Part shown: one piece after another, positions 5,167-62,685 of the stretch
Numbering within the stretch: the first letter of the stretch is position 1
How the letters are laid out: each line of letters begins with the position of its first letter
DNA from: Moniliella sp. 'wahieum'
Taxonomy: Eukaryota
Direction of reading: 5' to 3'
Assembly: GCA_003971905.1 (NCBI GenBank)
Contig: RSEE01000007.1
Coordinates: 124,001 to 188,000, forward strand
DNA length: 64,000 nt
The notes under the pieces: model-generated
Told to the model about the DNA's origin: nothing
What the model saw: only the letters and a program-made list of their open reading frames with translations
Database searches by the model: none
Translations under genes and position numbers: made by a program

Positions 5167-8100
5167 CTTCGCCCGCTCCCAGTCACCTGCATCAGGAGTG
5201 TAGGGCCCCTCCGCTTGGATACCGGGCCACCTGTCACTCCCTTCCTCTCCTTCTGGTTCCTTTTGGCTCCTCTGTCTTACGCTATGACCACACCCTCCTT
5301 CCGCATTTACCCCTTGCCCTCCAACATCACCTTTCCACCTGTCTATCGCTTTCCTCTCCTGATCATGGGAGATACCTCACCTTCATTTCTTTGTACATGT
5401 ACCTGTGCCCTCCGCAGGAGGAGGGCAAAGTTTGTTATTTGTGGCATCCCTGTTTCTTTTATCTTTCCTTTTTCTCGCATCTTGAAGTTCACGGGCCTCT
5501 ACTCTGGTACTCACGCAACGGATTCGGAGCATGCAACCCCATCTATACATTTGGCCCATTATAATGCGGCCCCCACTGAAGAGGGCACCATAGCCTTTGT
5601 GCTTCCTTAGAGATTCTTCAGCCGCCCAAAGCTACTCACTTCATTGATCATTACCTTGGGGATTGGAAGTGGATATGAGTTGGCAGATAGTAAGTATTGT
5701 TGAAGATCGGGCCTCTTCTGTATTCTCCGTATACATGATGCATATCCCCCTTCCTGTTATTAGTTAGTCTCCGAGTAAAAACGTGGCCACAGACCCACAG
5801 AAGCCAACTTCAATGAAAGCCTTATTCGCACACAGTTGGTACAGAGAGGAGAAAACTACTAAACATGATAACGTTTTCATTCATTGATGTGGTCTCCCTT
5901 TGTGCAGTTGCCAGCCACTTGTCCGCTTGAACCCTTCTGATCTACATTTATGTGCTACCCCAAAGAAATCACGGTAGGCTATAGGAGACAGATGCAATTA
6001 AAGATAGGGACCGACGCCTGCTAGGTCACCACCTCTCATCATCCTACCCAAAATCTGACCAGTCAGACTGCTTGTCGAGTTGATGGAGAGTGGGGTTTTC
6101 TATGTCCTCTCCAGTCTCCAGACTTCCACAAAAATGCGGAACTTCCAATCTTCACGACTCCCGTTTGGACACCCCTCTGTGATCTGGTAAGAGTCCACTT
6201 CTATCGCCCCACAGATCGTGCATGTGTCATCTTGTCCTCCTCTAGTGAACCGATCGACAATGGTTCTTTTCTAAAGAAAACACTGATATTATGATGAGCT
6301 GGAACAGAAAGGGATACTAGAATTCCGTCGCCGGGGACCTTTGCTGCCGGCTTTTGGATGTCGAACATGTGGATAGGGGGAGTTACATGCATTACAGTCG
6401 GTGGCCGTTATATGTCCGTTGCTTCGCCCGAACTTGAGTTCCGTGAAAACACCGGGAGAGTCTCTCCACGGTTCAACTGCATATAACCCACTGCAGTTTC
6501 ACGATACATCGTAATAGTCGTGTGTAAGGCCAGTGTGGCCTCCTGGTTGACAATTTCGCCTGAAGGAGGCCGAGAAGGAGCCAGACCTCTGGCTCGTAGT
6601 GAACAGGGGCCAGACGTAGGCTCAAAGCACAAGTTTCGTACCAAGAGCCGCCGTCACTTTGCCTTGCTAGCGGCATCCTCCCTCTGCTGAGTCCTAGCGA
6701 GGCCGGTGTTGAAAGATCGACGACGTAACACAAAACGATTGGTCGCTTGTCTCCCAATGCAGACTTAGTACGGAGTGGGTCTTGGTACAGGCAGGCAAAA
6801 ACCCGCGAGCTATGTATGCAATAGGAAAACGGCCAAGAGCTGTTTCTGATGGCTGTGCTGCGCAACATCGCCCTGCGACACCATGGTTCCATCACCATAT
6901 TCACTGCCATACAGAACAATGCTCGATACAGCCAACCGTTGCAGAAAAGAATGCGTAACCGAGCCGTGACACCCGAGGAAGAGCTGGTCATGAAAGAAAC
7001 GTTTGGGGTCTCGAGCTGGGTGTATGTCGTACTTGTGAAGCCATTAGGTGAATACCACTGGGGGTGGGGTGGGGCACCAGGAAGCTGATGTTGGCGCTGT
7101 ATGAGGAAGTGTCGGAGGGCAACGCAGCGAGAAATGTATCAGGAACGTATACGGAATCAGAAGGGACAGAGAGAGAGAGGAAGGCACAGGCGAAGGTTGT
7201 TTGCCAGATTCTGGAAACATCCGATCTCACGATTGCGAGGCAAGGGAGGGCGCAAAGGGGATGCGTATACTCTAGAAGGAGGTTCCATGTTGAGAAACAC
7301 AAAAGCAGTGTATCAAAAACGCCTTTTTCGAGTCGGAACTATATAGGATGCCACTGAGTCACACTTTGGATCCCGATGAGGTGTACTAAGTAGTACAGAC
7401 TACATATTACTTTTACTGCATAGTATACAACAGGGAAGGACTAGGCACGAGGTGAAGGGCTACGTATGTAGCGACGTACTACGGCAGGCAGACAGCGGGC
7501 TCTGAGCCACCAGAAGCACAGATGAGCGAGAACGAGGTAACGAAGAGTTGAGCGAAGAGGTGGCAGTGGTAGGGAAGAACAGAGAGGAAAGCGCCAGTGG
7601 TGTCTAGGACTACATCTGAGGCTTACCATTGGAGCAAGGTGAAGGCGCCACGGATAGATAGGACGCGCGCGGGGTAGTAGGTTATATAAAAGCCTAAAAC
7701 AAACCTCTAACAGTAGGGCAGTTCCCCTCACAACAGCCTGCGCCGTAGTACATGGATGTTTTTTGATCTCCCCTCTTCGGGTGCCATGTAACACAGATGT
7801 AACAGCGTATCAAAGCAGTCTTGAATTGGTTGCCATTTTCAGTGTCAGACGATGATTACCAGAACGGGGAAGAGGCGGAAGAGAAGGGCGGGGTCTGAAA
7901 GTGAAAGGGCAAGTTAGAAGGATGGTCGACGGAGCTAAAAAAGGGCAGCAGAGCGTATAGGGCAGGAACGCAGGGAAGAGTGAGATCCCGAGACTGAGGA
8001 GGGGAGGTAGTGGCTGGGAATGGCGGGGGATAGCCTGTTGACAGTGGGATAGCTGCTTGCAAGAACGGGTTATAGATGGCGAAACAAGGTTTCTGCTTTC

Positions 8101-8411: not shown

Positions 8412-8491
8412 CCACCGGCCCCGACCACCGGCCACCGACCACCGGCCACCGACCACCGGCCACCGGCCACCACCACATCCACCGGCCACCG
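8412..8491 (+). repeat. 7-bp-period tandem repeat CCACCGG/CCACCGA
   Basis: ccaccggccaccgaccaccggccaccgaccaccggccaccggccacc read directly. Confidence 0.85.
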
Positions 8492-8540
8492 ACTCACACC
8501 GCCAGCCACTCAAGGGACTCACTCAACTGCCGGCAGACGC

Positions 8541-9730
8541 CTCAGTCACTCAGTTGAGTACCTGAGTACTGAGTGTACGCATGCTCTCAGACCTCAGATT
8601 CTCAACCTTGAACTTCAAGTTGGAGCTTCAAGCTTCAAGCTTCAAGTTTCAAGCTCAAGCTTCACGCTTTGCTAGTGCCTACTAGCGACTTGTGACTAAT
8701 GGCTATTGCATAGGATCACCGGGCACATCGCCAATAATTGGATCGATCGAAATGATCGATGATCGATGATGTATGATGCATGATGGAGAGTTCGGTGACC
8801 GGTGACCGGTAGACGCCGTTTCTACAAGTAGCATGAAAAAACCACTGTAGAGAGGGGGCCTGGCCTCAGGGTAGGGTGGTGTAAGGCCGGTACTGGTAAT
8901 GGGCCTTAGGGGACGCTAGGGGCTGCCAACAGGCGGTTCAGTCTGAATCTGAGCCCTGAGCGTCGGAGCGTCGGAGTGTCGGAGCGTCTGAGCTGTGAAT
9001 ACGTGAATGTGAGCTTGCAACACACATGCGGCAGTCTGGCGGCGGCAGCGGGGCCTGCGCATAGCCCGCCCTGAGGAGTTGCGTTCCTGTGGCCTCAGAC
9101 CCGAAGCCTGAGGGCGTGGGCTTGACGCGTGACGATGGTGGCTGAGGCTTGCGGCAGCGGAGATGTGGGTGGGATGTGGTGGGATGGGATGGGATGGGGT
9201 AGGATGGGTGATGCGTGGGGTGGCATTGCCGGTCACGTGTTGCATGGCGATCGGACGTTGGGCTGTGGGGATGCTGGGATGGATGATGGGGATGGATGAA
9301 GACGCGAGACCCTCTGCGATCTGACCGATCCGCGATGTGAGATGTGAGATCTGAGTGATCTCGGATCCATGATCTCGTGTGGGAAACCAGGGGGACTGAG
9401 TACTGAGGCGCTGCGTCTGAGGTCTGCGGCCGGCCATCCACCTTGCATCGTCGCAGCGCACGTCCCCATGCACCAGCTCTGGAGCGCGGTGGGGCGAGGA
9501 ACGGAGCGGGCTGCTGAGCGCTCGGCTGGCCAGTCCCTCTGTCTGAGGCCTTAATTGGTGTAAGACTTTTCCAGCAACCTTGGGGTCCGTAGGAGATGGC
9601 GGCCTCAGCGCCTCAGCGCTCAGCCTGAGCCGAGGCCGAGGCCTGAGGGCAAGTCTGACTAACACGTACTCAGTTACTCAGTACTCGGTACTCAGTCTGA
9701 GTACTCACGCTCGATATCACTCAGTACTAG
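8541..9730. repeat. Cluster of heptamer quasi-palindrome arrays
   Basis: (CTTCAAG)x3 8626-8646; TGA every 7 bp 8753-8783 (tgatcga tgatcga tgatgta tgatgca tga); (GGTGACC)x2 8794-8807; TGTGAGA/TCTGAG 9336-9356; CCTCAGC/GCTCAGC/CCTGAGG 9601-9648; ACTCAGT/ACTGAGT-type units 9667-9730. Confidence 0.9.
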
Positions 9731-10276: not shown

Positions 10277-12673
10277 ATGACGCTCGACCCCCCTTGCCCT
10301 TTTCTTCTCCGGCACACTTCAAGAAGCATTTACCGCCTGCCCACTCTGCTACCCCGCCCGCTCCTTCCTCACCTGCCCAACCGTACTCGCCGCCTCTTCC
10401 CGATCCCATCGAGCACACGTTTGCCCGGGTTCGCAAGTTCAGCGGAAAGATGCCTCCTCCCGTGTGTCCTCCCCCCCCCCTTTGCATGCCTCTCCTTGCC
10501 AGATCAAGACTAACCGTGCTGTCAGTCTATCTTTGCCACTCCAGGGCGCCGTAGTCGGAGCAAAAGCAGTGTCGAGTCGATGCGCGCTTTGTTGGCCCTC
10601 CAGCAGGAGGGCGCCGCGCCGTCGCTTCCGACACACTCTCCCGCCCTGGTTCACCTCAGCTGCTGCACCGGCCCGAGTTGGACTCGTTGCCTGGAACTTC
10701 GCGCACTGCGCCCACGGGGGCATCCCAGGGCAAGTCCGCGCAGTGGTTCCAGCGCCTCGCTCGATCCAAGGCTGGGACTGGGATCCGATTGGCCTCCAAT
10801 GACACGGTGATTGAACGACGCGATTCCGGCGATTCTTTCGAGTGTGCGGGCGCGAGCGAATTGATCGTCAAATGGACATTTTAGAGTCTCAACCCCTACG
10901 CCATCGTCATCGACACGCGATTTGCCTTGGCCAGCCAAGGATGGGTCCAGTTTTCCAGGCACCTTATCCATGGCCTTATCCCCCAGCCAGTCAGGTACTT
11001 CTACGCCCAAGGAAGAACGGGCACGCAAGCCCTCTACGCCCGCCACTAAGGAACGGCAGGGCATGCTCGATGGCGTGTTCCACTACCCACCATGCGCCGC
11101 GATGGCTCTGAACGTTCCGCCCGCTCTCGAATGGCATCCCACCATACATCTGCTAAGAGCGCTGTTACGGCCGACGATCTTGGCCGCCGGCCTATTGCTC
11201 ATATGAAGCAGAAGCGCAGCATGCCCAACCTAAGTCACGTTACCAAAAATAGCACCCTGCGCTCGCCCTCGTCCGACTAAAGCACGACCCTTTTTCATCT
11301 GTCGAGACTGCCGACAGCGCGCAGACACCTCATCTCCCGACTGGGACGTCGCGGACGATGCGCCTCGCCACTCGGCCGATTACTTGTCGAGCTTCCCATC
11401 CGCTGCACAAGATCCTGCCTCCCCGCTTTCCCACCGGTCCCAGGCGCGGCCTGTGGGGATGTATGGAGCGAGGGAGTGGATGGGGTACCCCATGCGCAAA
11501 GCCCAGAGCGCCAATCCTCGGCCAGAAATGAACTTTGTCTTCCCCCGCCCGCAGGTGACACCATTGGATGACGAAGAGACGCCGGTGTTTGGCACTTCAC
11601 TGAAAGTGAGTGACGGGTCTTCGCCCGTCCCATTTCCCTGTTCCCCTTTGCCCTTGGTTCAACCGTACCATCCTTCGGCTTCATCAACGGATCTATCGTT
11701 CAGGTCAATGCAGTCCTCCTCGCCCATACCGTCGTCCTCATCGCAAACGGAAGTGCGGCCGCTGATTTTCCGTCACCTCAACTCCAGTTACGTTGAGGAC
11801 AGCCCACGCAAGCCCCGTGCCCACGAGAAGGGGCACGCTCACTCCTTTCGGGAAGCAGCACGGGGACGTCACTTGTCATGACGGCGGACGAAGCGGAGCT
11901 GCCTGGCCGATTGGGGGCGTGCATGTCGCCATACGGTTCGCCACTGTCCACCTACCGTCCCTGGATCAATTCGAGCCAGAGAGGAGTGTAGACAGCCCTA
12001 GTATCACCCACAGTCCTCTAGGGAGTACTCGTACAACTCCTTGGACGTGGTCGAAAGTAGGGACCTCGGCATGCACGACAGCAGCCAGTTACCCCCCTAC
12101 GTTCCCCGTTCGCTCCGCTCCCTTCACTCCGGGGACGAGTGTTCAGAGAGCCCCATGGGCTCTTCAGCCTCTGTCTGCACCGCGCCCCAGCAGTGGTACC
12201 TCCTCCTCTGGTGCCTCATTCCTCTGGTGCTTTGGCCCTAGGAGAGACGGTGCGGAGCTTGGCTTTGGGTCTATCGGATGAATCTGACTCAGAAGGCCAG
12301 CAGCACGTGCTGACACCCAAGGCAAAAGGATGCAGGCCACCGCCTCCCTCCCCATCCCAACGCAATATCAGCTCTCGGCCTCGGCATGCCGACCCCCATC
12401 GACCGTTCAAGCTACCGCCAGCTCACTCACCACACCGACCCGTCCTTCACATTCCCTTGTCCTGCCATTCCGACCGCCGCTCTCCCCGTCCCACGCCTCC
12501 CGCCCCGGTATCCCCTCTCCCGACCGCGGCTCCGCATGCATACACCTTTCTCAGCTGAGGACAGCATCTCAATCAGGGAAGAGACGCACCTACGCTCTCC
12601 CTCGGAACCGGTATCGTCTCTTGTCGGGGCAGCCTCTTCTCCCGCCCGCCCAGCGGGCTCCCGAGTCGTTTGA
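10277..12673 (+). CDS. Hypothetical Ser/Pro-rich low-complexity protein (several frameshifts)
   Basis: Chain of overlapping plus-strand ORFs of similar composition (9761..10513, 10678..10884, 10922..11206, 11092..11280, 11384..11881, 12041..12558, 12386..12673) after a pyrimidine-rich leader. No domain recognised. Confidence 0.4.
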
Positions 12674-14030: not shown

Positions 14031-14233
14031 AGTCAGAGTTTGGCTGATCGATGATCTCGCTCCCATTTCCAATTTCTCCGTCCCGAACGTCTCGCTCCTT
14101 TTCCCTGTATACTTCACCCGCTTCGCAACTATGTCCTCTGTGCTCTCTTTTGCTTCTTCCCCGCGAACAATTGCTACATTCCTTTTGCCTAGTCTCGACT
14201 CTGGTCTCCCTCGCTTTAGCCCCGACTGTGACA
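14031..14233 (-). mobile_element. LTR copy (family A)
   Basis: Aligns by eye end to end with 43120..43410 and with the reverse complements of 44005..44185 and 62503..62685 (shared ctcgctcccatttccaattt, cgaacaattgctaca, tggtctccc, agccccgactgtgaca). No TSD seen. Confidence 0.8.
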
Positions 14234-14242
14234 GTATCGATT

Positions 14243-14382
14243 ATCGTTCGTGGGGTAGAAGCAAGACAGATGACATCAGTGATAGCAAGCGGAAGAACAG
14301 GAAAAGAGCGATACGCTCGGGACAAAAGTCGTTGGAAAAATAGGAGCGAAATCATTAATCAGCGCTCAGCCAAGCTATGGCA
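14243..14382 (+). mobile_element. 5'-truncated LTR copy (family A), inverted relative to the adjacent copy
   Basis: atcgttcgtggggtagaagcaaga...aagcggaagaacagg...gagcga...caagctatggca matches 44064..44185 on the same strand. Confidence 0.75.
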
Positions 14383-14544
14383 GGTACACTCCTTTGTCTT
14401 CTCGCCTTGTCTGAAAACTGCTTTGTAGCTGATCCCCTAGGGTTCCCCGAGTGCTCCCACTAGACTCTAGTACCAACATATTCCGAGCACCTATATACCT
14501 TCCCTCGCTCCCGCTATTCGTCTCCAAAAATCGGATGCGGCGAG

Positions 14545-14830
14545 ATGATTCATCGATTATCGATCATCGATCACGTCCATCACAACCAGTCGGAGATCCT
14601 CGTTCAACTGAACGTTCAACGTTCAACGTTCAATGTACGTACTCTATTCAATATTCAACGTGTTCAACGTGTTCAACGTACGTTCAACTATATATATTAC
14701 GTTCAACGTTCACGTTCACGCGTTCAGTACCAGCAAGCTCAGTACGTTCAGTACTGCCAACTGAGATCGTACTGAGATTTGAGAGTACTAGACGCACTAC
14801 ACGCTGTGCTACTGAGTTGGTGCGTTCAGT
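14545..14830. repeat. Dense heptamer quasi-palindrome array (GATNATC, GTTCAAC, ACTGAG-type)
   Basis: catcgattatcgatcatcgatc at ~14551-14572; GTTCAAC at 14614-14627 and many more to ~14720; agtac/actgag units to ~14816. Confidence 0.9.
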
Positions 14831-15289
14831 ATTTCGAGTTTAAGCGTTAAGACCTGAATGATCGGCGGCCAACTATAATTCGCCACAGGCATGCGGTGCG
14901 GGTGGGCCTGTGGGCGGCGTGTGGATTGCTGCGGAGCGGCCCAGGGCGGCTCGGCTGGTGGTGGCAATGATGCAAATCTCTCGCTCTAAACCCTTTCCCT
15001 ATGGCTCTGTTCCCTGCCGATGCCTCTTGTGGTGTCGTCATTGCAAACAAACACCGGCTTGCCAGCATTGTGTTGGGACCCGTGGTCCCGTACTTAGGCC
15101 AAGGTGCCTCATCACCCTTCACCCCTGATTTGTCCTCCCAAGCCTCCACGTGTATACTCAGGCTTGTTTGAACCCCTGTCTCTAGGTGTGGCACAAGGCT
15201 TAGACCGGAACCACCACCATCGCGATTGCATTGCTCTACATCTCCAGAGGTTCTTCACCCAATCCCTTGGGTTCCTCCGGTCTTACAAT

Positions 15290-15455
15290 TTGTGACCAGA
15301 CCATGTTCTCCAATACTCTTCCCTTTGTATCTTCCTCTGTTGAGATCTCTCTTTTGGAATAGAACATCATATGTCCCTCTCTCTCTTTCCCTCTCGTCTT
15401 CCATATCTTGTTTCCTTCTGCGAACGATCTTTCCATCCCCCGTGTGTGACGACAG
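15290..15455 (-). mobile_element. Diverged LTR-like remnant related to the 62.5 kb copy
   Basis: tgtttccttctgcgaacgatctttccatccccc resembles the reverse complement of ~62550-62584; begins tgtgacc versus tgtcacc. Confidence 0.4.
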
Positions 15456-15575
15456 CACCACGGTGTGATTAGACCTCTGGAGTCCGGATGGTCCTCGAAG
15501 GTGAAGCAATCACACTGGAGGTGGTGGTAGACTAAAAGCCAACCAGCAACCCTACAGAGGAACATCAAGCAGCGA

Positions 15576-15753
15576 GTTGCCACCAGGGGCCCAGCTGCGG
15601 AACAAAAGGGAAAACAGGAGAGAGAGAAGGCAACGGAGCTCCTAGGCTTGAGGAGGAACGCAAGGGACGTTGGCCAAAGCACGAGCCACCTGGTGGCTCA
15701 ACGCATGTGGTCTCCCTCGCTTATAGCGCTTAGCCTAAGCCCCGACTGTTACA
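15576..15753 (-). mobile_element. Deleted LTR-retrotransposon remnant: first ~46 bp of LTR joined to internal leader
   Basis: Minus strand starts TGTAACAGTCGGGGCT...GAGGGAGACCA (the LTR start). 15576..15686 matches 44193..44303 (gccaacgtccctt...ctcctca...taggag.tccgttg...gcccctggtggc), which follows the LTR at 44 kb. Confidence 0.7.
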
Positions 15754-16350
15754 TGTTACGTGTTCTTATTGCAGTTGGGAACAGACTGACTATAGACTGA
15801 CTAGTTCCTGTGTGACTAGTGACTAGTGACTAGTGACTGATGATTGATTTGTACTCGACCCTTGGTCAGGAAGATAGCACACAGCTGCGAGCGAGCAGCC
15901 AACAAGATCATCGCTACATCACTAACATCACTCTCACAACACTCATCTCAGACTGACGGCTCGGATCTGCGTGGGGCAAGGGCGCATTGGGCCAGCCTAA
16001 GGCCTAATAGCGTTTCCAACTTCCATCCCTGTTGGCCCGTCGAGAGCATGGCGGCCAATTAATGTATCCTTCGACCGTAGAGCGCAGGTCTGCATAGCGC
16101 TTAGTAGCTCGGCCTGCTTGGCGCTGAGGCTGAGTTCGGTACTTCGTACGAGGCCCGAGGCCTCTTAGGGCTTCGCATCTTGGGCCTTAGTGCCTCAGCG
16201 CCTCAGCCCGTAGGAACTTTGAACTTTTAGCGGCATGCGTTGATGATCGACCATCGATGATCGATCGGCCTGAACAGAACGTTGCACGGATTGATGATCA
16301 TCGATCATCGAACCTATCTGCATTCGTAAATCCTCCAGTTACATGTTACA
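15747..16350. repeat. Cluster of heptamer quasi-palindrome arrays
   Basis: TGTTACA-TGTTACG 15747-15760; (AGTGACT)x3 15818-15838; cctcagc units ~16190-16207; GATGATC/GATCATC ~16242-16310; gttacatgttaca ~16338-16350. Confidence 0.9.
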
Positions 16351-40117: not shown

Positions 40118-42740
40118 GAATGTTCAGTTGAACGTTGAACGCGCTGAGGCGCTGAGGCGCTGAGGTGGGGAAAGGGCCAGCGTCAGCGGCTCAGCCCCCG
40201 CTCGGCCGCGCTCAGGCGCTCAGGCACGTACACTGCCAGTACTTGCGACCCTCGTACTCACAGCTCAGTGGCCTAGTGGCTGGATTCCCGTTCCGCGTTG
40301 CCCGTTTACATGCTCGTTACGTTACAGAAAAGTGGCAGGAGCAGCGCTTGGTCTGTCGACCGCCCCACAGGCAGCCCTCTGCCCTTCTTCCTGCCCTGTT
40401 TTTTCCTGGCTTCGGACCTGGAAAATGTAATCGATCTCTCGCTAATCGATAATCGGCCGCTGCGATAGTTCTCCTGAGCGCCGCTCTGCGCTCAACATAC
40501 TCAACGTTCAGCGTGTTTAACGTTTACGTTTAGCGTTCGACGGCAACCAGGCTTAGTGCTCAAGTGCTTATAAGCGCGAGAAGAGTGATATACGTATGTC
40601 GAGAAGGGTGTGTGCGCCGTGTAGAACGACGACGATGCCAGGGGACCTGCAGTACATACAGTGCGAGAAACCACCCTGTACGTATTCGACCGCTTTCATG
40701 TCTCTCTGTGTGGCTTGTTGCTGGTAGCCCTGCCCTCGCCGCGACGTTCTGTGGTTTTCGCCAACTGCAGCCGCCACCCCCCCACAGTAGCCCACGGCGC
40801 CCGCTGTATTCTTAATGCAGAACTGGCATGCTCCCCGCAGGGTATCGCACCCCGAAGCCCTCTACATGGTAACCCCTTTCACCGCGCCCACTTTTGCCTA
40901 GCTCTCCATCAACCATCATACACAGCGCATTCCCGCTGCATCTGTCCCTCTACGTCCGTCCCTGGGGCCTGGTCGCTGTCAACGGCCACGGGCACATGGT
41001 CACACGTCGCATCTCACAAACATGCTAGTCATGCACATGTATCATGGAAGCCTGCCAGTCCCTCTCGCTTTGCAGCCACGCTTGTTGGGCGCTTGGGCAG
41101 TCTCTTGCTGCTATTTGGCTGGGCGCTGAGGGGCTGAAGCTGCACGTTGAGCTCAACCTCGACGCTCTGGAAGCTTAAAGCTTAAAGCTTAAACGCTTAA
41201 TAAGCTTTGAGTTCGCCATATTCCCGTGGCCGCGATGATTGGGCCACTAGGCCACTACTTGCCCGCCACCTACCCGATGGTGGCCCACGCAGTGCCCACG
41301 CTCTCTTATGGCCAAATCAGGCCTTGGGCCTTAGGCTAAGGCCCTCAGGCCTCAGGCCTCGGGGCCTCAGGGGGGCCGCAGGCCTCAAGCTCCCCACGCC
41401 TCAGACAAGAAGTGGGGAGCAACTTCTATCTCCGTCGTCCGAAAGACCGAAGGGGGCGCAGTCTGTTTGGATCTCCAAGCTGACTGAGTAAGTGCCTAGT
41501 GATTAGTGAGTACTGAGTACACTGAGTACGAGTACCTAGTGAGTGAGTACTGAGTCCGACACTGTCTCGCACCTGTTTGTTTTTACATAATCACCGGTCA
41601 CTGATCACACACCCCTTCCTCGCTATCATGCATGCGATGCATGACGACGGTGACCCGGCCGGTGGGGCGGGTGAAGCTAGTACAATTTGAAAGCGAGCAA
41701 CCAAAGAATAATATTTCCTGGTTATCGATTCTCGATTCTCCAAGGACTAGGGACTGTTGATATATGATCGTGATCTAGGGACGAGTGAGTGTGATAGGGC
41801 AAGTGAAGCTAATGACCTAGTGGCTAGTGCTTGGGACCGATGCGCCGGTCAGTCAGGCGGCCGGTGGATTTTGGATCCCGAGTCGGTGAGAGCGGTGACA
41901 TATGATCGGTGATCTGTAAACTCAAATGGATTAGTGCGTGCCTGGACAAATGAATGTGTGGCCGCCGCCCCACCCAACGTCCAACGGGGCTGGTGCTTGC
42001 GTTGAAGCTTGAAGTGCTGAGGAGGCTGAAGCTGAAGCTTGAAGCACGATGCATGATGCACTGAAGGTAGCGACCAAGGACGCCGAGATCGATGACACAT
42101 CTCAGCCTTGTTTATAACCGCGTTATCCGCGCTGTCCATGCTCCAACGCCCCGTTTGCTGCGGCTCAGGGCAGCTCTCGGTGCTGGCGCAGGAGCCGCAC
42201 AGGTGATCAGTCATGCATCAGCGCGACCAGGTTGATCCGTGTGCTCAGGCTCTGGCGGCGCTGCTGAGTGTGCTGACGTACTGAGGCAAAGGGTACTGGT
42301 ACTGGGGCGCCGCGGCTCAGAGCCACTGGGCATGGCAGGCCAGGACGCATGATGCAGGATGCATGATGCATGACTAGGACTGGAGTGCCAGGCAGTGCCC
42401 CGTGCAGCGGATGCCGAGAGCCCAACAAACAAATAAACCTCGAGCGCACGTGGGACAGGGTGCGGAGCGGCGGCGCCCGCCGGGGCCACTGATATACTGA
42501 TGCGTCGGGTTATGAGGCCGAGGCGTCCGAGGCCCAGTGAAGCTTGAAGCCAGTGAATATTGAATCCGCCCCACAATCCCCCAGCTCGCCCCAGCGCCCC
42601 CAGCACTGCCCGCGCACTGCCCCACCCATCCCAATCTATCACCTCCGGCAGCGGAGCACAGTGACTAGCTAGTGACCCTAGTGACCGTAGTGACCGGTGA
42701 CCACCCCCATCGGTGGAGGGTCATCGATCATCGATCAGCC
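40118..42740. repeat. Long intergenic region dense in heptamer quasi-palindrome arrays
   Basis: gttgaacgttgaac ~40127-40140; (AAGCTTA)x3 41171-41191; (CCTCAGG)x2 41343-41356; ACTGAGT units 41505-41555; cttgaag ~42001-42045; catgatg ~42348-42372; gtgacc/ctag 42661-42702; gatcatc 42721-42737. Confidence 0.9.
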
Positions 42741-43119: not shown

Positions 43120-43410
43120 TGTCATCAACATGGCTTGGCTGATCTCGCTCCCATTTCCAATTTCTTCGTCCTGATGAGCATCTCGCTCTTTCCCTGTTCT
43201 TCCGCTTCGCACCATGTTTTTCCGCTTCGCACCATTTCTTCCGCTTCGCCACCATTTCTTCCGCTTCGCACCATTTCTTCCGCTTCGCACCATATTCTTC
43301 CGCTTCGCACCATGTCTTCTGCTCTTGCTTCTCCCCCACGAACGATTGCTACATTCCTTGACCAATGTCTCTCAACTCTGGTCTCCCCCGCCTCAGCTCC
43401 GACCGTGACA
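43120..43410 (-). mobile_element. LTR copy (family A) with an internal minisatellite expansion
   Basis: TGTCA...GTGACA termini; homologous to the other copies; no TSD seen. Confidence 0.8.
43200..43313 (+). repeat. Minisatellite, six copies of a 19-20 bp unit TTCCGCTTCGCACCAT(TTC)
   Basis: Units start at 43200, 43220, 43239, 43259, 43278 and 43298; other LTR copies have one unit. Confidence 0.95.
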
Positions 43411-44004
43411 TCCGCCCATCCTATAAGCTTGACGCTTTTGACTGTTGTTCGACATGAAGATGCGCCGGTGGAAACCGGGGGAAAGATGGGGTCGACCTGC
43501 TCGGCCATAGCAGTTTGGACCTACAAATTAAGTAGAGCCAATGTCAAACGGAACTGTCTGGTCTAGGACCCTTCAGAGGAAGGGTTTTCTCGGACCTCAT
43601 TTTGAGAAGTAAATGAAGACGGCGAGCCCGGTGAGCTTAGTGGTGGTGGGCAGCAAAGCAAACACGGGTTTTTCTCTTCTTGGAGGCCTGGACAAAGTCC
43701 ATGGGAACAAAAGTGGAAGAAGACTGGCAATAAAAGGGAAATGGCCTCTGTCCAGTTGGTCAGCATACAGGCTGAGGTGGTCAGCGTGTGGATTGAGGTG
43801 GACCGTGCATCAATGCCAGGGAGACAGAAGGGACTGAAAAAAGTCGCCGAGGTCCGGATTTGTGCGTGGCACCCCCTTAGATGTGGCCGCCACACAAACA
43901 TCGCCAATGGAAGGGTCCAGATCCTGCGTGGCTCTGGGCGCAACGCCTGTGGTCCAGGGTGAAGTGTGATTTGGAGGACGCGAAAGAGCTGTCGAGCCAC
44001 GGCG

Positions 44005-45845
44005 GGTCACAGTCGGGGCTAAGGCGAGAGAGACCAGAATCGGACTAGGCCAAGGGGTGTAGCAATCGTTCGTAGGGAAGAAGCAAGAACAGAGGACATG
44101 GTGCGAAGCGGAAGAAACAGGGAAGGAGCAAGACGCTCGAGACGAAGAAATTGGAAATTGGAGCGAGATCAGCCAAACTATGACAGCAGGAAGCTTGTGT
44201 TTTTAGCCAACGTCCCTTCAGTCCCTCCTCAGGCGTAGGAGTTCCGTTGTTTTCTCGCCTTTTCAGTTTTCCTTCTTTCGCGCCTATAGCCCCTGGTGGC
44301 GACCGAGGACTTCAGATGTCATCAGCGTTACAACTCTTCGCTTATCCGGCACTGGTGAGCAACGGTGATTACCTAGCACTCCCCACTCCCCTTCCCTGGC
44401 GTATTTTGTCAACGATGGGCGCCACTCCACTCCCTACCCCTCGCCTTTCGAACCCGGACGGGGTGGAAGAAGACCCTCTTCTGTCGCCTTTTCCGACAGG
44501 AGGAATTCCCTTCGATCGTGCTTCTCAACAGCTGGCGAAGGGCCAGTTCGGCCAATACCAAACCATTTCCCAGCTTCTTACCAGAAGGCGCCTATGGTGG
44601 CTACCGAAGGCGCCAATCATCTTCGTGATTTCAACCACCATCTGGGGAATGTCACAAGCAGGCTCTCTTCACTCTTCCACCATCAGAAGGTCGTGAACGG
44701 CCCCGCGAAGCGGGTTCCCAGCGATTGGCCTGCCCAAGCGGCTGTGGTGCGTCTTCAGTTCAATGAATTGCGTGGATGCTCCTCAGTTCCGGCTTGTCTA
44801 GGGAACGTCTCGCTGACGAGGCCGAGAAACGGTGGGGCGCTGACGTCTGGGCAGACGCGCTGCTATGGCGGTTCTATAGAAAATGTCCTTCGGCGCGATA
44901 TACGCATCCCGCTGTTCTGCCAAACGAAGTCTTCCCCCTTTCTCCTTCTCCCGTGGATAGGGATGCTGCTGTCCACCATTTGCAAAATGTATAATTGACT
45001 TGCGGTGTGGCATGCGCTCTTGGAACCAGCTCCCCCATGCTGTTGGCCTGTATGTGGTAGGGCTTCGCGCCAAAATGGTATTGTTTCAACGACTCCGTGA
45101 CGAAGGCAAGGATCCCGAGACAGTATCCGCTGTGAAGACCCTGACTACCACGTTGGACAAAGACGACAAATTCAACGCCGAACAACCATTCTGGCCATGG
45201 GTCAAACAAGTACTTGCGGTGATGGAACGGGCCGTTGCGGGGGCACGGGAGACTGTTAAGCATGGGCCTACCGGCGACCACTACAAACCCGGTCTATAGA
45301 CCGTATATGGTCTTCGAACCCCTTTACGTCCGGCTACACCCTTAGTACTGTTCATGACTCTCGTTCCATGAGAGTGTAGTGGATTCTCGTGCATCGTCCC
45401 TGTTTGGTCTCCTGCGGGAACGCTACGGCCACATGTCTCCGTCCGAGAAAATCGACACGGTGACGGTAATCGTACCTTTGTTTCGCGAACCGGGGCCCAA
45501 TTTGTTCAACCAAATCGCATGTTGGTACACAAGACCAACTTATGGCTGGGCTCCTCTTCCAGAAACCCTTCTCCGTACAGTGGTAATTAATGCGATATAG
45601 AACAACGGCATGCCGGTCGCATATGCCTGCAAAACATACGAGGAACTCTTTGACTGACGCTTGTGGCAACTCACTCATCTGCCGTTCATCGCACCTCGTC
45701 CTTTTCCCCTTCCAGCTCTCGGGGACGCGGTTTTTACAGCATCACTAGTTCCCGCGGTGGAGCCTTCCGAGGGGGACGTGCGTACCGAGGTGCCACCTCA
45801 TCTCCAGCGCCTGCTTCTTCTCTGAGCGGTAGTAACTTTAGCTAA
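44005..45845 (+). mobile_element. Truncated, decayed LTR retrotransposon: 5' LTR (44005..44185), leader and possible gag-like remnant
   Basis: LTR homology, and a leader shared with 15576..15686. Followed by stop-interrupted plus-strand ORFs (SLFGLLRERYGHMSPSEKID; RGRG/RGG-rich end). The gag identity is inferred from position only; no pol motifs seen. Confidence 0.55.
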
Positions 45846-54404: not shown

Positions 54405-55503
54405 TAGCCTCTCAGCCTCTCAGCGCTCAGGCTGAGCAGCAAGGCTGCCTCTGTCGAGGCGGTTGACTAGTAGCGTAGGACCGAATAGTTGCAAGAATGG
54501 CGCAGGGCAGTGGCAGAGCACAAGGGGTCCGTGCGGAGCGGAGCCATCGGTGGGTGAGGACGCGGGACGAGGAGTGGGTCACCGGTCACCGGAGAGAGCA
54601 CTCGAAATGTGGCTGTCGCTTCGGGCTTAACGTTTAACGTTTAACACGCTTAACGTTAAGCTTAACGCTTAACGCGGGGAGAGCTACGAGCTTCCAACGA
54701 GTTAACAAAAGGACCTCTGCAGGTGCACGAGAAGGGAACAATCAGAGTTCGTTTCTTGTAAGCCCCTCAGGCCTAAGGCTTGATATTCGCCCAATCTTGA
54801 GTGCAACCGGGCAGAGAAGGAAGGAGGAGGACGAAGCGTGGCGTTATGTGATGGATTCGGGGTGCGGGGGTCGCGCGACACTGCACGCTTTAGTAGTTCT
54901 GCCTAAGCTTCAAGCTCCAAGCTTCACAACACACCCCAACACTGGTGACCACCAGTCTCTCCGCCAAACTCGTGCTCCTTCAGTACTGAGCTCAGTGGTA
55001 ACGGGGATCAGTCCGATGTTCGATTGATTCCCGGAATTCGGACGATCGCGAGAACCGTGAACGCTCAACGTACCGCGTACACGTTCAACGGTGACATCGC
55101 TTCTCGCAATTGCTTCACCTCTTCGAATCCCGCTGGGGAATTGAACATGAACCTGAACGGCAGGCTCGGCAGTGTGAACGTTGTAAACAGCGAGTAGATT
55201 CGCCCTGCCATGCAACAATGGCCAGCGCCCCCAACGTGGCAATGGGGACGACTACCACGGCAACGAGCAACGACTAGTAACTAGTGACTAGCAACGCCCC
55301 CTCCCTACTGACAGCTTGAAGGGCTGGCACAGCCTGAGGCTGCCGAGGGCTTATTAGACGAAGGCAGTATGCCCTCCCCGCAAGGCAAAGGAAGAGAGGG
55401 GCATGGGGCACCCGGCACTGTTGCTACATATGTACAACCTTGTATGCGAGTGTGTGGTATGCAGTAAGGTACGAAGCCCCGGTCTCGGGTAACATGTAAC
55501 ATG
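54405..55503. repeat. Cluster of heptamer quasi-palindrome arrays
   Basis: ctcagcgctcag ~54419-54430; (GGTCACC)x2 54577-54590; (GTTTAAC)x2 54632-54645 with ttaac/ttaag units to 54675; aagcttcaagc ~54905-54925; AGTAACT-AGTGACT 55276-55289; GGTAACA-TGTAACA 55488-55501. Confidence 0.85.
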
Positions 55504-59417: not shown

Positions 59418-61660
59418 AGTAACTAGTAACTAGCCACTAGCACGCGCAACGGCTCACAGATCACAGATCCCGTGCCACCATGTCACCGTCAGCGGCGATC
59501 GATGATGTGCCTCTCAGCGTATCAGCACTACCGAGGGCAGGCGGTGGGCGTTACGTTGAAGGGTCGATGATCGCAATGATCGGTGATCGATGAATCTTAA
59601 TCGATACCGGTAAGCGCCTGTCGCTGGGGCGTCGGACGCCTGGATCTGGCCACCGGTCACTGGTTCCCGTTAGGCGTGCTGGGACCCGCTTGGAGCTGCT
59701 CCCACCGAGCCTGGCTAGCGCGCTGAGATCAGCCTCAGGCCTGAGCCTGAGCCTCAGGGCCCCAGTATCGGTCATGCGCGAGGCCGACTGCCGCCGGTCA
59801 CCGGTCACAGTCACTAGTCAGTATACGTACCCAGTACTCCGTCGCTAGTCACCTAGTCACTCCTGTGACTGTCTGGAGTTTTCCTAGCCTGCCCTAGCCA
59901 ATCCCACAGCAGGTGCAGCTCTGCTAGCTAGTCCTTGCCAACTCCAGCGAACCAGTACCGCTAGCCAGGCCGCGCCGGCCGGCAGAGGCGCTGCAGAGCG
60001 CTGCCTGGCCTGCTGGAAGTCAAACCACCAGGGCCTGCCAGGACACGCCCCCATGCCTACGGTTTATCCGGGGTCTTTGTCGCTGGTGCCCCGACACTCA
60101 TCCTATGGGGAGCCGCAGTCCGGTTTCAAATCTACCGACGCAGTTGGCGCCGTCCACCAGCTTAACGCCGGTACCCCCGTCTGCTCTGGCTGACCACCGA
60201 AAATGCATCCTCGTCATGATCATCGAACATCGATCATCGCTCGAAGCGCTAATTCGAAGACCAGGCAGAGAAAACGTTGCAGAACCTGTGGAAACAGGCC
60301 GAGCCACACTGCCTCTGTGCCCGCTCCAGCTCCGCGGACGCGGACGGCCTGCCACCGCGGTGTTCCTGTTTCTATCGCCCCGTCGGGCGCAGGTGGCACA
60401 GGAAAGACCATGGGCACAACCAACAACAAGGGTGCTGGGTGCTAGGGGCTAGGGCTGCATCTTTCAGGATGATTCGGTGATCAGCGATTGCGATGCATGA
60501 TATGTGACGTGGGAAAGCATGATGCGTTGCAAGAAATCCGCTACCGCATTGCTCAGCCTGGGCGCTCAGCCACCCAGTGGGCATGTGCGTACACCGCCTC
60601 AGTACCTCAGTACCACTTGCTCACTAGATTCCCACTACTAGTGCATGTGATGGTACTCATGCGAGGCAGGCACTAGTCACTAGTCACTCAATACGAGTCG
60701 CTCACTACTCGGGTCGCATGCCACATGTCGCGTTTAACGTTTGCCAGTCTTGGCCTTGCCTTGGGCTGCAAGCGCTGCACATTCCTTTCTGCGGGATCCT
60801 TTTTTCCGGCTGACTGGAAACGCTGGACGTTGCGCAAACCCAATAGGGCCGCGATCCACTCTATCCACTCCGCACTCCGTGGACCAGGGACCCATGTTGC
60901 CCTGGCCGCTTTGCGGCGCCGCCAGCGCGGTCACCATCCCCGGTCACCGGTCACCGGTTGCACACCCTCCGTGGCCTCCGTGCATGCGCATGCGCGCCCC
61001 GCTTGTCCCCGCACAAGAAATGAGGCTTTTCGGCTGCAGAGCTTGAGCGCCACAGGGCTTCAAGCTCCAGCGCCTTCCACGTCATCTCATCATCCGCGCT
61101 GAGGCCTGCTGAGGTCGGCTGAGGCACTGCTGAGGAACTGCTGACGCACGGTGGGTTAAGCTCCTGAGGCTCAGGCCTGTTCATGTAAATTCGATTGCAT
61201 TGCTTCGCCGCCCCCCCCCCGAGCTTCGTCCAGAAATGCCTCCGATTATCAATTACTACGGTACTCCATCAGCTTCCTGCCACGATGCCCCCCTCCCTTA
61301 TACCATCGACCAACACGCCATTTCCATTGGCTACTGTCTTTTTAGCTCTGGATGTCGGGTATGGGGGCGCAGGGGTCTGGGATCTGAGGCCGCGTATTCC
61401 GAGCTCGCTATTCGTGGCCTCGCCGCCCTTACTAGTTACCAGTTACTAATAGTGACTGAAGGCACATCTGCTTTGGAAAAGCCAATATTGGCGTGTTGCC
61501 TTTTTAGACGCTCCACTCGCACTTTGCAATTGGTGAGCCCAGTGACCGGTGACCAGTGACCGTCGCTCACGGTGATGAGCCTCATCACTGAGCCACAGTG
61601 CGTTTGGCCAAAAAGAGGACCTTCAGTCCTCCTTACAGGCCTCATGCCTCGGGCCTAGGT
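59418..61660. repeat. Long MFS upstream region dense in heptamer quasi-palindrome arrays
   Basis: agtaactagtaactag 59418-59433; gatgatc ~59565-59592; ctcaggcctgag ~59733-59758; ggtcaccggtcacagtcactagtca ~59796-59820; ctagtcactagtcact ~60673-60688; (GGTCACC)x2 60942-60955; agtgaccggtgaccagtgacc 61541-61561. Confidence 0.9.
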
Positions 61661-62502: not shown

Positions 62503-62685
62503 TGTAACAGTAGGGCTAAACGAAGAGGGAGACCAAGGTCCTGTCAGAGGCGGGGGGAAAGGCAAGATCGTTCGTGGGAGGAAACAGAAGGCATCAGGCA
62601 GAGAACAGAAGCAAAAGGGAAGGGAAGAGCGAGAGACACAGGATGCAGAATTGGAAATTGGAGCGAGCTTAGTCATTCGGTGACA
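62503..62685 (+). mobile_element. Solo LTR (183 bp) with perfect 5-bp target-site duplication
   Basis: TGTAACA...GTGACA termini flanked on both sides by CTCGT (62498-62502 and 62686-62690); homologous to family A. Confidence 0.9.

Follow-up and report, generated by a model that had tools for sequence, protein, structure and literature searches.

The 64,000-nucleotide stretch of the Moniliella sp. 'wahieum' contig RSEE01000007.1 analysed here (positions 124,001 to 188,000 of the forward strand; hereafter the window, to which all counts below refer) carries intron-bearing housekeeping genes, for example ILV3, NOG1, dynamin and V-ATPase A, together with a dispersed repeat resembling a long terminal repeat (LTR) and many short arrays of seven-base units. 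An exon of ILV3 is 78-83% identical to proteins of Ustilaginomycotina (Pseudozyma flocculosa, Ceraceosorus, Ustilago and Sporisorium) and 93% identical to one further protein, which places the host among the fungi of this subphylum. Our subject is a class of short additions, found in copies of the LTR-like repeat and elsewhere in the window, in which heptamers of the form NNTNANN recur side by side or separated by a few filler bases.

Copies of the repeat were identified by a BLAST comparison of the window with itself, and were aligned with MAFFT. The repeat is about 0.2 kb long and ends in TGTCA...TGACA. Four copies were recovered by the self-comparison, with pairwise identities of about 77-88%, and in all the window holds five copies, full or truncated, and one more that is partial (15576-15753), the identities again being about 77-88%:

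14031 to 14233, forward strand: LTR-like copy (BLAST, MAFFT) in which the site GC-TGA-TC has gained 7 bp (GATGATC, 14050-14056), giving GCTGATC-GA-TGATC.
14243 to 14385, reverse strand: inverted, truncated copy in which the GC-TGA-TC site is 14 bp longer, with a mirrored unit on each side (14350-14370; M7L + M7R).
15576 to 15753, forward strand: partial copy, 14 bp longer than four others around a TTAGC site (15720-15745).
43129 to 43410, forward strand: reference copy with the single unexpanded site GCTGATC at 43138-43144; it holds a 20-bp minisatellite.
44001 to 44184, reverse strand: reference copy with the single site GATCAGC at 44167-44173.
62503 to 62685, reverse strand: more diverged fifth copy, with a single site at both positions.
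15747 to 15760, no strand assigned: mirrored +7 scar at the repeat terminus, TGTTA-CA-TGTTA-CG (TGTTACA at 15747-15753, then TGTTACG at 15754-15760).

In the alignment, the GC-TGA-TC site is short in three of five copies, 7 bp longer in the 14.0-kb copy (where the cluster scan places the mirrored junction at 14043-14056), and 14 bp longer in the adjoining inverted copy, which reads AATCATT-AATCAGC-GCTCAGC at 14350-14370. At the 3'-proximal site, four of five copies are short and the 15.7-kb copy has 14 bp more, the extra bases holding the palindromes AGCGCT (15725-15730) and GCTTAG-C-CTAAGC. The additions are unlike each other between copies, and are thus private gains of individual copies and not a shared ancestral long form. 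The strings and coordinates that the initial annotation had quoted for these copies are all present in the sequence, and its contrast between single sites at 43138-43144 and 44167-44173 and extra units in the 14.0-kb and inverted copies was confirmed; the possibility it had raised that the longer forms are ancestral finds no support among the aligned window copies. For the 15.7-kb copy, the 14 additional bp, the AGCGCT palindrome and the TGTTACA-TGTTACG terminus were described correctly, and what did not stand is a unique derivation of the 14 bp from the proposed rule.

The repeat has the features expected of a solo LTR, namely TG...CA termini, a short inverted repeat, a length of about 0.2 kb and a dispersed distribution. 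By eye, no clear flanking target duplication was seen at the copies in the window, and the Pfam scan found no reverse transcriptase or integrase in the window's open reading frames (ORFs), and it is by its termini that the repeat is recognised as a putative LTR. LTR-like copies occur as tail-to-tail inverted pairs at two loci, adjacent in one (14031-14385) and 590 bp apart in the other (43129-44184). Outward of the presumed 5' end, 15576-15695 and 44184-44303 have a further 120 bp or so in common, in inverted orientation (BLAST), and the complete unit of the repeat may therefore exceed 0.2 kb, the 15.7-kb copy then being internally deleted. The minisatellite at 43197-43323 consists of about 6.5 copies of the 20-bp unit TTCTTCCGCTTCGCACCAT, and is expanded in one LTR-like copy only, by ordinary tandem growth that has nothing to do with the TNA pattern described below.

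Additions of the kind seen in the repeat copies are found across the window. Tandem Repeats Finder returned 126 rows, period 7 being by far the most frequent. Compared with 20 first-order Markov simulations, perfect tandem duplications are in excess at period 7 (52 against 4.05 expected), period 8 (11 against 1.05) and period 9 (5 against 0.15). A palindromic register is found in 27 of the 52 period-7 duplications, and all 27 have the form NNTNANN. Where a palindromic heptamer is tandemly duplicated in register (20 cases), the core is T-N-A without exception. The mirrored 12-mer TNAwx-x'w'-TNAwx occurs 93 times on both strands where 0.55 would be expected, and no base pair other than T and A at core positions 1 and 3 gives more than 9 occurrences. 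Spacings between identical TNA triplets peak at 7 bp (154 against 35 expected), followed by 8 bp (72 against 32) and 9 bp (68 against 31). Sixty-eight different heptamers take part, and the only things common to them are T at position 3 and A at position 5.

TNAwx pentamers repeated at a distance of 7 bp number 132 on both strands. Their spacer was called mirrored where it reverse-complements wx without also repeating the dinucleotide upstream; by this definition it is mirrored only in 53, a plain copy only in 14 and compatible with both in 40, and several of the 14 plain spacers are shifted registers of palindromic arrays. The junctions fall into 62 scar clusters under the base criteria, and 63 when the +10 class is added:

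23 clusters: single mirrored +7 at a non-palindromic founder site.
2 clusters: single plain +7 at a non-palindromic site.
7 clusters: single +7 at a palindromic site (uninformative as to mirroring).
5 clusters: single +8.
3 clusters: single +9.
1 cluster: single +10.
1 cluster: single +11.
21 clusters: compound, with two or more junctions.

None of the 62 clusters lies inside the 12.9 kb of Pfam-supported ORFs, as is expected given that a 7-bp insertion would shift the reading frame. Restriction to non-coding DNA is also what would be seen if the clusters were arrays of regulator binding sites kept by selection, with the differences between LTR-like copies being unrelated drift, and palindromic sites are typical of dimeric DNA-binding proteins. 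However, a set of 68 heptamers with just a T and an A in common does not resemble a binding motif, the grammar of the junctions has no binding-site rationale, and one and the same site gained different units in two decayed repeat copies. We find selection for such motifs scarcely credible as the source of the clusters.

The fillers define the duplicated unit. Exact NNTNANN heptamers recur at distances of 7, 8, 9, 10, 11 and 12 bp in 27, 11, 10, 2, 5 and 6 cases, respectively, where 0 to 0.5 would be expected. A filler was regarded as being of palindromic (P) type if it complements the adjoining end of one or both of the two copies. This holds for 10 of the 11 fillers at 8 bp, each a single base complementary either to the one that ends the left copy or to the one that opens the right copy, for 8 of the 10 at 9 bp, and for one of the two at 10 bp (a 3-nt P filler). 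At 11 bp, two of the five cases are of P type, with two mirrored bases from each flank, and at 12 bp three of the six rows, representing two distinct events, have 5-nt P fillers. A calculation by hand puts the probability that the 8-bp fillers would agree this well by accident at about 2 in 1000, and the corresponding figure for the 9-bp fillers at about 5 in 100,000. One of the two-sided junctions is a +11 scar at a non-palindromic site:

14760 to 14777, no strand assigned: ACTGAGA-TC-GT-ACTGAGA, in which TC mirrors the end of the left copy and GT the start of the right copy.

Whole heptamers thus flank fillers of 1-5 nt that are predictable from the flanks, and it is for this reason that the unit is taken to be 7 bp. 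The rule given in the initial annotation, yzTNAwx to yzTNAwx-x'w'-TNAwx, is upheld in its mirrored dinucleotide (93 against 0.55; 53 against 14), as is the NNTNANN target of about 7 bp, the heptamers with a TNA core recurring at 7-12 bp. Its unit of a 5-bp duplication plus 2 inverted bases is replaced: a 7-bp NNTNANN target duplication plus hairpin-derived P nucleotides is the better description. Nor are the 7-bp additions elsewhere in the window mostly plain duplications, isolated mirrored cases outnumbering plain ones by 23 to 2. The palindromes have an even centre, with x' directly after x, and the double transversion of the Ac type was seen once in the window.

Three other units were tried and rejected. 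A 5-bp duplication with 2 inverted bases cannot give whole heptamers on both sides of fillers of 1-5 nt. With a duplication of the 3-bp TNA alone, whole heptamers would not be duplicated as they are, and TNA is found at a distance of 3 bp in just 49 cases against 33 expected. If 8 bp were duplicated and the end base complemented, about 2 of 10 of the +8 junctions would, by eye, be accounted for with the base on the right, or 1 of 9 with it on the left, compared with 10 of 11 under the 7-bp model.

These results also bear on the kind of element that might be responsible. TNA is the target duplication of PIF/Harbinger elements. The Harbinger duplication measures 3 bp (PMC12730594), and hairpin footprints are classical for hAT elements (PMC5873905), so that either a PIF/Harbinger-type element or a classical 8-bp hAT, as opposed to a 7-bp duplicator, might be considered. 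It is, however, heptamers and not triplets that flank the fillers, the enrichment of TNATNA is weak, and the +8 junctions disagree with an 8-bp unit in the way just given; an origin from either element is highly improbable.

A further alternative involves no transposon: palindromic heptamers arising by chance would have been expanded by replication slippage, in the manner of minisatellites. Slippage is frequent at short tandem repeats, and many of the arrays are indeed perfect and head-to-tail, with 2 to 4 units or in some cases 7 to 12 copies; one long array, at 8412-8493, has no TNA core. Yet slippage copies bases that are already there and cannot make the reverse complement of a flank, whereas isolated events at non-palindromic sites are mirrored in 23 clusters and plain in 2, and fillers of 1, 2, 2+2 and 5 nt are palindromic to their flanks. 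It also leaves both the strict T-N-A core and the excess at 8 and 9 bp unexplained. In the following array several junction types occur together:

14602 to 14714, no strand assigned: compound array of about nine GTTCAAC/ATTCAAT units with fillers of 0, 2, 4 and 5 nt (T7, T9, T11, T12).

Its fillers are each the reverse complement of flank bases (e.g. GT, GTAC, TGAAC). Slippage would copy a single junction type, and the mixture of types within one cluster therefore points to separate events at one locus. The 21 compound clusters with mixed junction types support the reuse of sites created by earlier events, as the initial annotation had proposed for the growth of arrays. Slippage may contribute to the longest arrays, but as the origin of the pattern it is very unlikely.

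What the analysis shows is a set of sequence patterns with their statistics, a confinement to non-coding DNA and a polarity of gain among the paralogous repeat copies. From these we infer a transposon, flank hairpins and a series of repair steps: the extra units were probably left behind on excision by a cut-and-paste DNA transposon, itself absent from the window. The combination of an exact duplication of a staggered target with palindromes from both flanks matches the outcome of integration and subsequent hairpin-mediated excision. In the model, the element would integrate by a 7-bp staggered cut at NNTNANN, leaving the heptamer duplicated on either side, with fully or half palindromic sites preferred. 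At excision the transposase would leave covalently closed hairpins on both flanks, and host nucleases would open these either at the tip or a little way off, at 1 or 2 nt and in rare cases at 3 to 5 nt, whereby bases of the flank would become P nucleotides. End joining after both hairpins had been opened at the tip would give a plain +7; one flank contributing 1, 2, 3 or 5 P nucleotides would give +8, +9, +10 or +12, and each flank contributing 2 would give +11. The mirrored +7, which is the commonest class, would be produced if both hairpins were opened 2 nt from the tip, one 4-nt overhang being kept and the other lost. Where the site is palindromic, the 4-nt overhangs of the two sides would be identical and self-complementary, and their direct ligation would yield a perfect tandem copy, which would explain the clean arrays of palindromic units. 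Each mirrored scar would, moreover, make a new perfect palindromic heptamer, enabling reuse of the site and growth of the array.

Similar junctions might be made by a host nuclease, such as a domesticated transposase, or by snap-back end joining at NNTNANN sites in the absence of any mobile element. Polymerase-theta-type joining is known to insert snap-back templated bases at breaks, and this explanation gains from the very high scar density and from the lack of an element or transposase in the window. A single break does not, however, duplicate 7 bp, and at 14760-14777 an exact duplication is seen with palindromes from both flanks, while a staggered nuclease cut followed by fill-in would yield plain copies only, and plain copies are the minority. 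We consider it unlikely that the scars arose in this way.

Of the known systems, the excision footprints of Ac/Ds (hAT) in plants, S. cerevisiae and Candida albicans are an established hairpin type, with P-nucleotide palindromes, short deletions and microhomology (PMC5873905). Two marks of a hairpin-type footprint are found in the window, namely a target duplication kept across the junction and a filler that is the reverse complement of the flank, and as in Ac/Ds both copies of the target duplication are retained. The hairpin-mediated excision suggested in the initial annotation is therefore retained on account of the P fillers, though the even palindromes and the single double transversion differ from a canonical Ac-type footprint. 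The palindromes of Ac are centred on the complement of the base adjoining the element (PMC5873905), Ac duplicates 8 bp and the window unit is 7 bp, which sets the scars apart from canonical hAT elements (Ac, hobo and Hermes) with their 8-bp duplications. The window scars are also natural, fixed and spaced at about one cluster per kb, unlike the Ac/Ds footprints with which they were compared.

Flank hairpins are formed alike by hAT, Transib, RAG and MULE transposases; in the case of Muta1 the hairpin comprises the complete length of both strands (43+43 nt), and excision in yeast was precise for the most part (PMC5499845). Even palindromes agree better with a hairpin that holds both strands in full, as measured for Muta1, and full-strand flank hairpins, as in Muta1, Transib and V(D)J coding joints, predict even P palindromes like those in the window. 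The chemistry thus looks more like that of the MULE, Transib and RAG class, or of a non-canonical hAT. MULEs make target duplications of 8-9 bp or longer, and those of Transib and RAG measure 5 bp.

Duplications of 7 bp are nevertheless on record in basidiomycetes: hAT7, a group of hAT elements with 7-bp duplications, is described from rust fungi (Pucciniales), and Kyakuja (KDZ) elements of Agaricomycotina have 7-bp duplications, CA..TG termini and no inverted repeats (Kojima 2025, PMC12730594). The hAT7 elements share with the window a 7-bp duplication in a basidiomycete, and are set apart by their occurrence in rusts; the portions of the paper available to us mention neither footprints nor a target consensus for them, and its supplement gives consensus sequences of hAT7 and Kyakuja and no target consensus. 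Kyakuja likewise resembles the window in its duplication length in basidiomycetes, and no Kyakuja element was seen in the window. Galileo, a member of the P superfamily in Drosophila, makes 7-bp target duplications like those of the window, and is an animal element. Its target consensus is palindromic. P-type excision leaves bases of the transposon ends and is not known to leave flank hairpins.

Several observations weigh against an origin as excision scars. The initial annotation had called for an element with terminal inverted repeats and matching duplications, and for its transposase; both were searched for in the 64-kb window and neither was found. Inverted termini beside identical NNTNANN heptamers 20-8000 bp apart numbered 0 in the window at both 12/14 and 10/12 matches (and 0 as well in shuffled sequence), no element remnants were seen between identical heptamers 13-400 bp apart in the window, and a Pfam scan of its 211 stop-to-stop ORFs of at least 110 aa returned housekeeping domains only and no transposase domain. 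Approximately one cluster per kb is a very high density for transposon scars, and the null model behind the expected counts is a simple Markov chain. Some junctions do not obey the rule: 25 of the 132 distance-7 repeats are of neither mirrored nor plain form, fillers at 8 to 12 bp are not of P type in 1/11, 2/10, 1/2, 3/5 and 3/6 cases, respectively, and for the 14 extra bases of the 15.7-kb copy there is no unique derivation by two events that follow the rule. The 12-copy alternating CCACCGG/CCACCGA array at 8412-8493 has the core TGG (on the other strand) in place of TNA; it may be a mutated GGTGACC array later expanded by slippage, and slippage alone could grow long perfect arrays. Finally, canonical Ac/Ds palindromes are odd-centred (PMC5873905) and those of the window are even, the Ac form appearing once.

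The mechanism is of a known kind; the case is set apart by its target, by palindromes that are even, by its density and by palindromic heptamer arrays that would seed themselves. As a tentative extension of the excision reading, the scars may be the work of an undescribed, highly active lineage of flank-hairpin transposons, or of a domesticated descendant, in Ustilaginomycotina, with a strict 7-bp NNTNANN target, whose self-regenerating targets would seed heptamer minisatellites. A full-text literature search, whose coverage excludes subscription journals and figures so that a prior description is possible, returned no genome-wide arrays of heptamer scars and no such pattern in smut-related fungi; the parts available of a Ceraceosorus ribosomal DNA paper (PMC11687029) and of the Tm1 paper (PMC3169594) gave no lead to it.

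If the scars do record transposon excision, they would form a natural catalogue of hairpin-excision repair products, with about 63 clusters in the window alone, from which the target rule of a transposase (NNTNANN with a 7-bp stagger) could be read with no element in sight. The same catalogue would reveal the hairpin-opening preference of host repair, opening 2 nt off the tip appearing as the main mode beside opening at the tip, at 1 nt and, rarely, at 3 to 5 nt. It would show a route by which a transposon gives rise to short palindromic tandem repeats and to its own preferred targets, and Ustilaginomycotina would join the hosts of elements with 7-bp duplications. In practical terms, 7-bp indels at TNA sites would be informative strain markers, and could mislead promoter analyses based on alignments. 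Should the undescribed lineage exist, transposon scarring, at about one cluster per kb, would be a dominant source of intergenic indels in this genome.

Other individual scar sites and arrays in the window, to none of which a strand is assigned, are as follows:

8561 to 8807: intergenic stretch with several clusters (ACTGAGT, CTTCAAG three times, GATGATC/CATGATG, GGTGACC).
14562 to 14575: GATCATC-type scar in a GATNATC cluster (about 14540-14580).
15811 to 15838: AGTGACT array, the non-matching first dinucleotide of which (TG) indicates a mirrored founder site.
40127 to 40224: GTTGAAC twice, then the 8-bp units GCTGAGG-C and GCTCAGG-C, i.e. a 7-bp duplication plus one P nucleotide.
41173 to 41555: CTTAAAG three times, CCTCAGG twice and a cluster of ACTGAGT, the last with the 9-bp junction ACTGAGT-AC-ACTGAGT.
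54577 to 54674: GGTCACC twice, and a cluster of GTTTAAC/GCTTAAC that has a 5-nt P filler in GCTTAAC-GTTAA-GCTTAAC.

GCTGAGG heptamers at 61098-61149 follow one another at intervals of 10, 10 and 11 bp, with the fillers CCT, TCG and CACT, of which only the first is of P type. Two unexplained fillers, this CACT and a CAGA at 7787, start with CA, and are too few to interpret. CA is a common transposon terminus.

Beyond the window, a metagenome scan for three GGTCACC units gave at least 122 stretches, and 121 loci were analysed; among the matches listed there were no relatives and no element. The richest loci among these matches (L030, L032 and L062) are bacterial, being soil contigs with secretin, acetate kinase, PrpD and similar genes, and carry intergenic arrays (L030:3470-3570, L032:2620-2730, and L062:3060-3280 and 12220-12400) of variable, mostly non-palindromic heptamers of the forms NGTGANN/NATCACN. 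Two 8-bp junctions in L032 resemble one-base P fillers. These bacterial arrays are probably a different phenomenon. Three other loci (L034, L067 and L074), with 50-55% G+C and no informative Pfam matches, have, apart from the array that matched the scan, 2-3 further junctions resembling scars (TGTCAAC-GT-TGTCAAC and AGTGATC-T-AGTGATC among them), and may come from other eukaryotes in which the same process operates.

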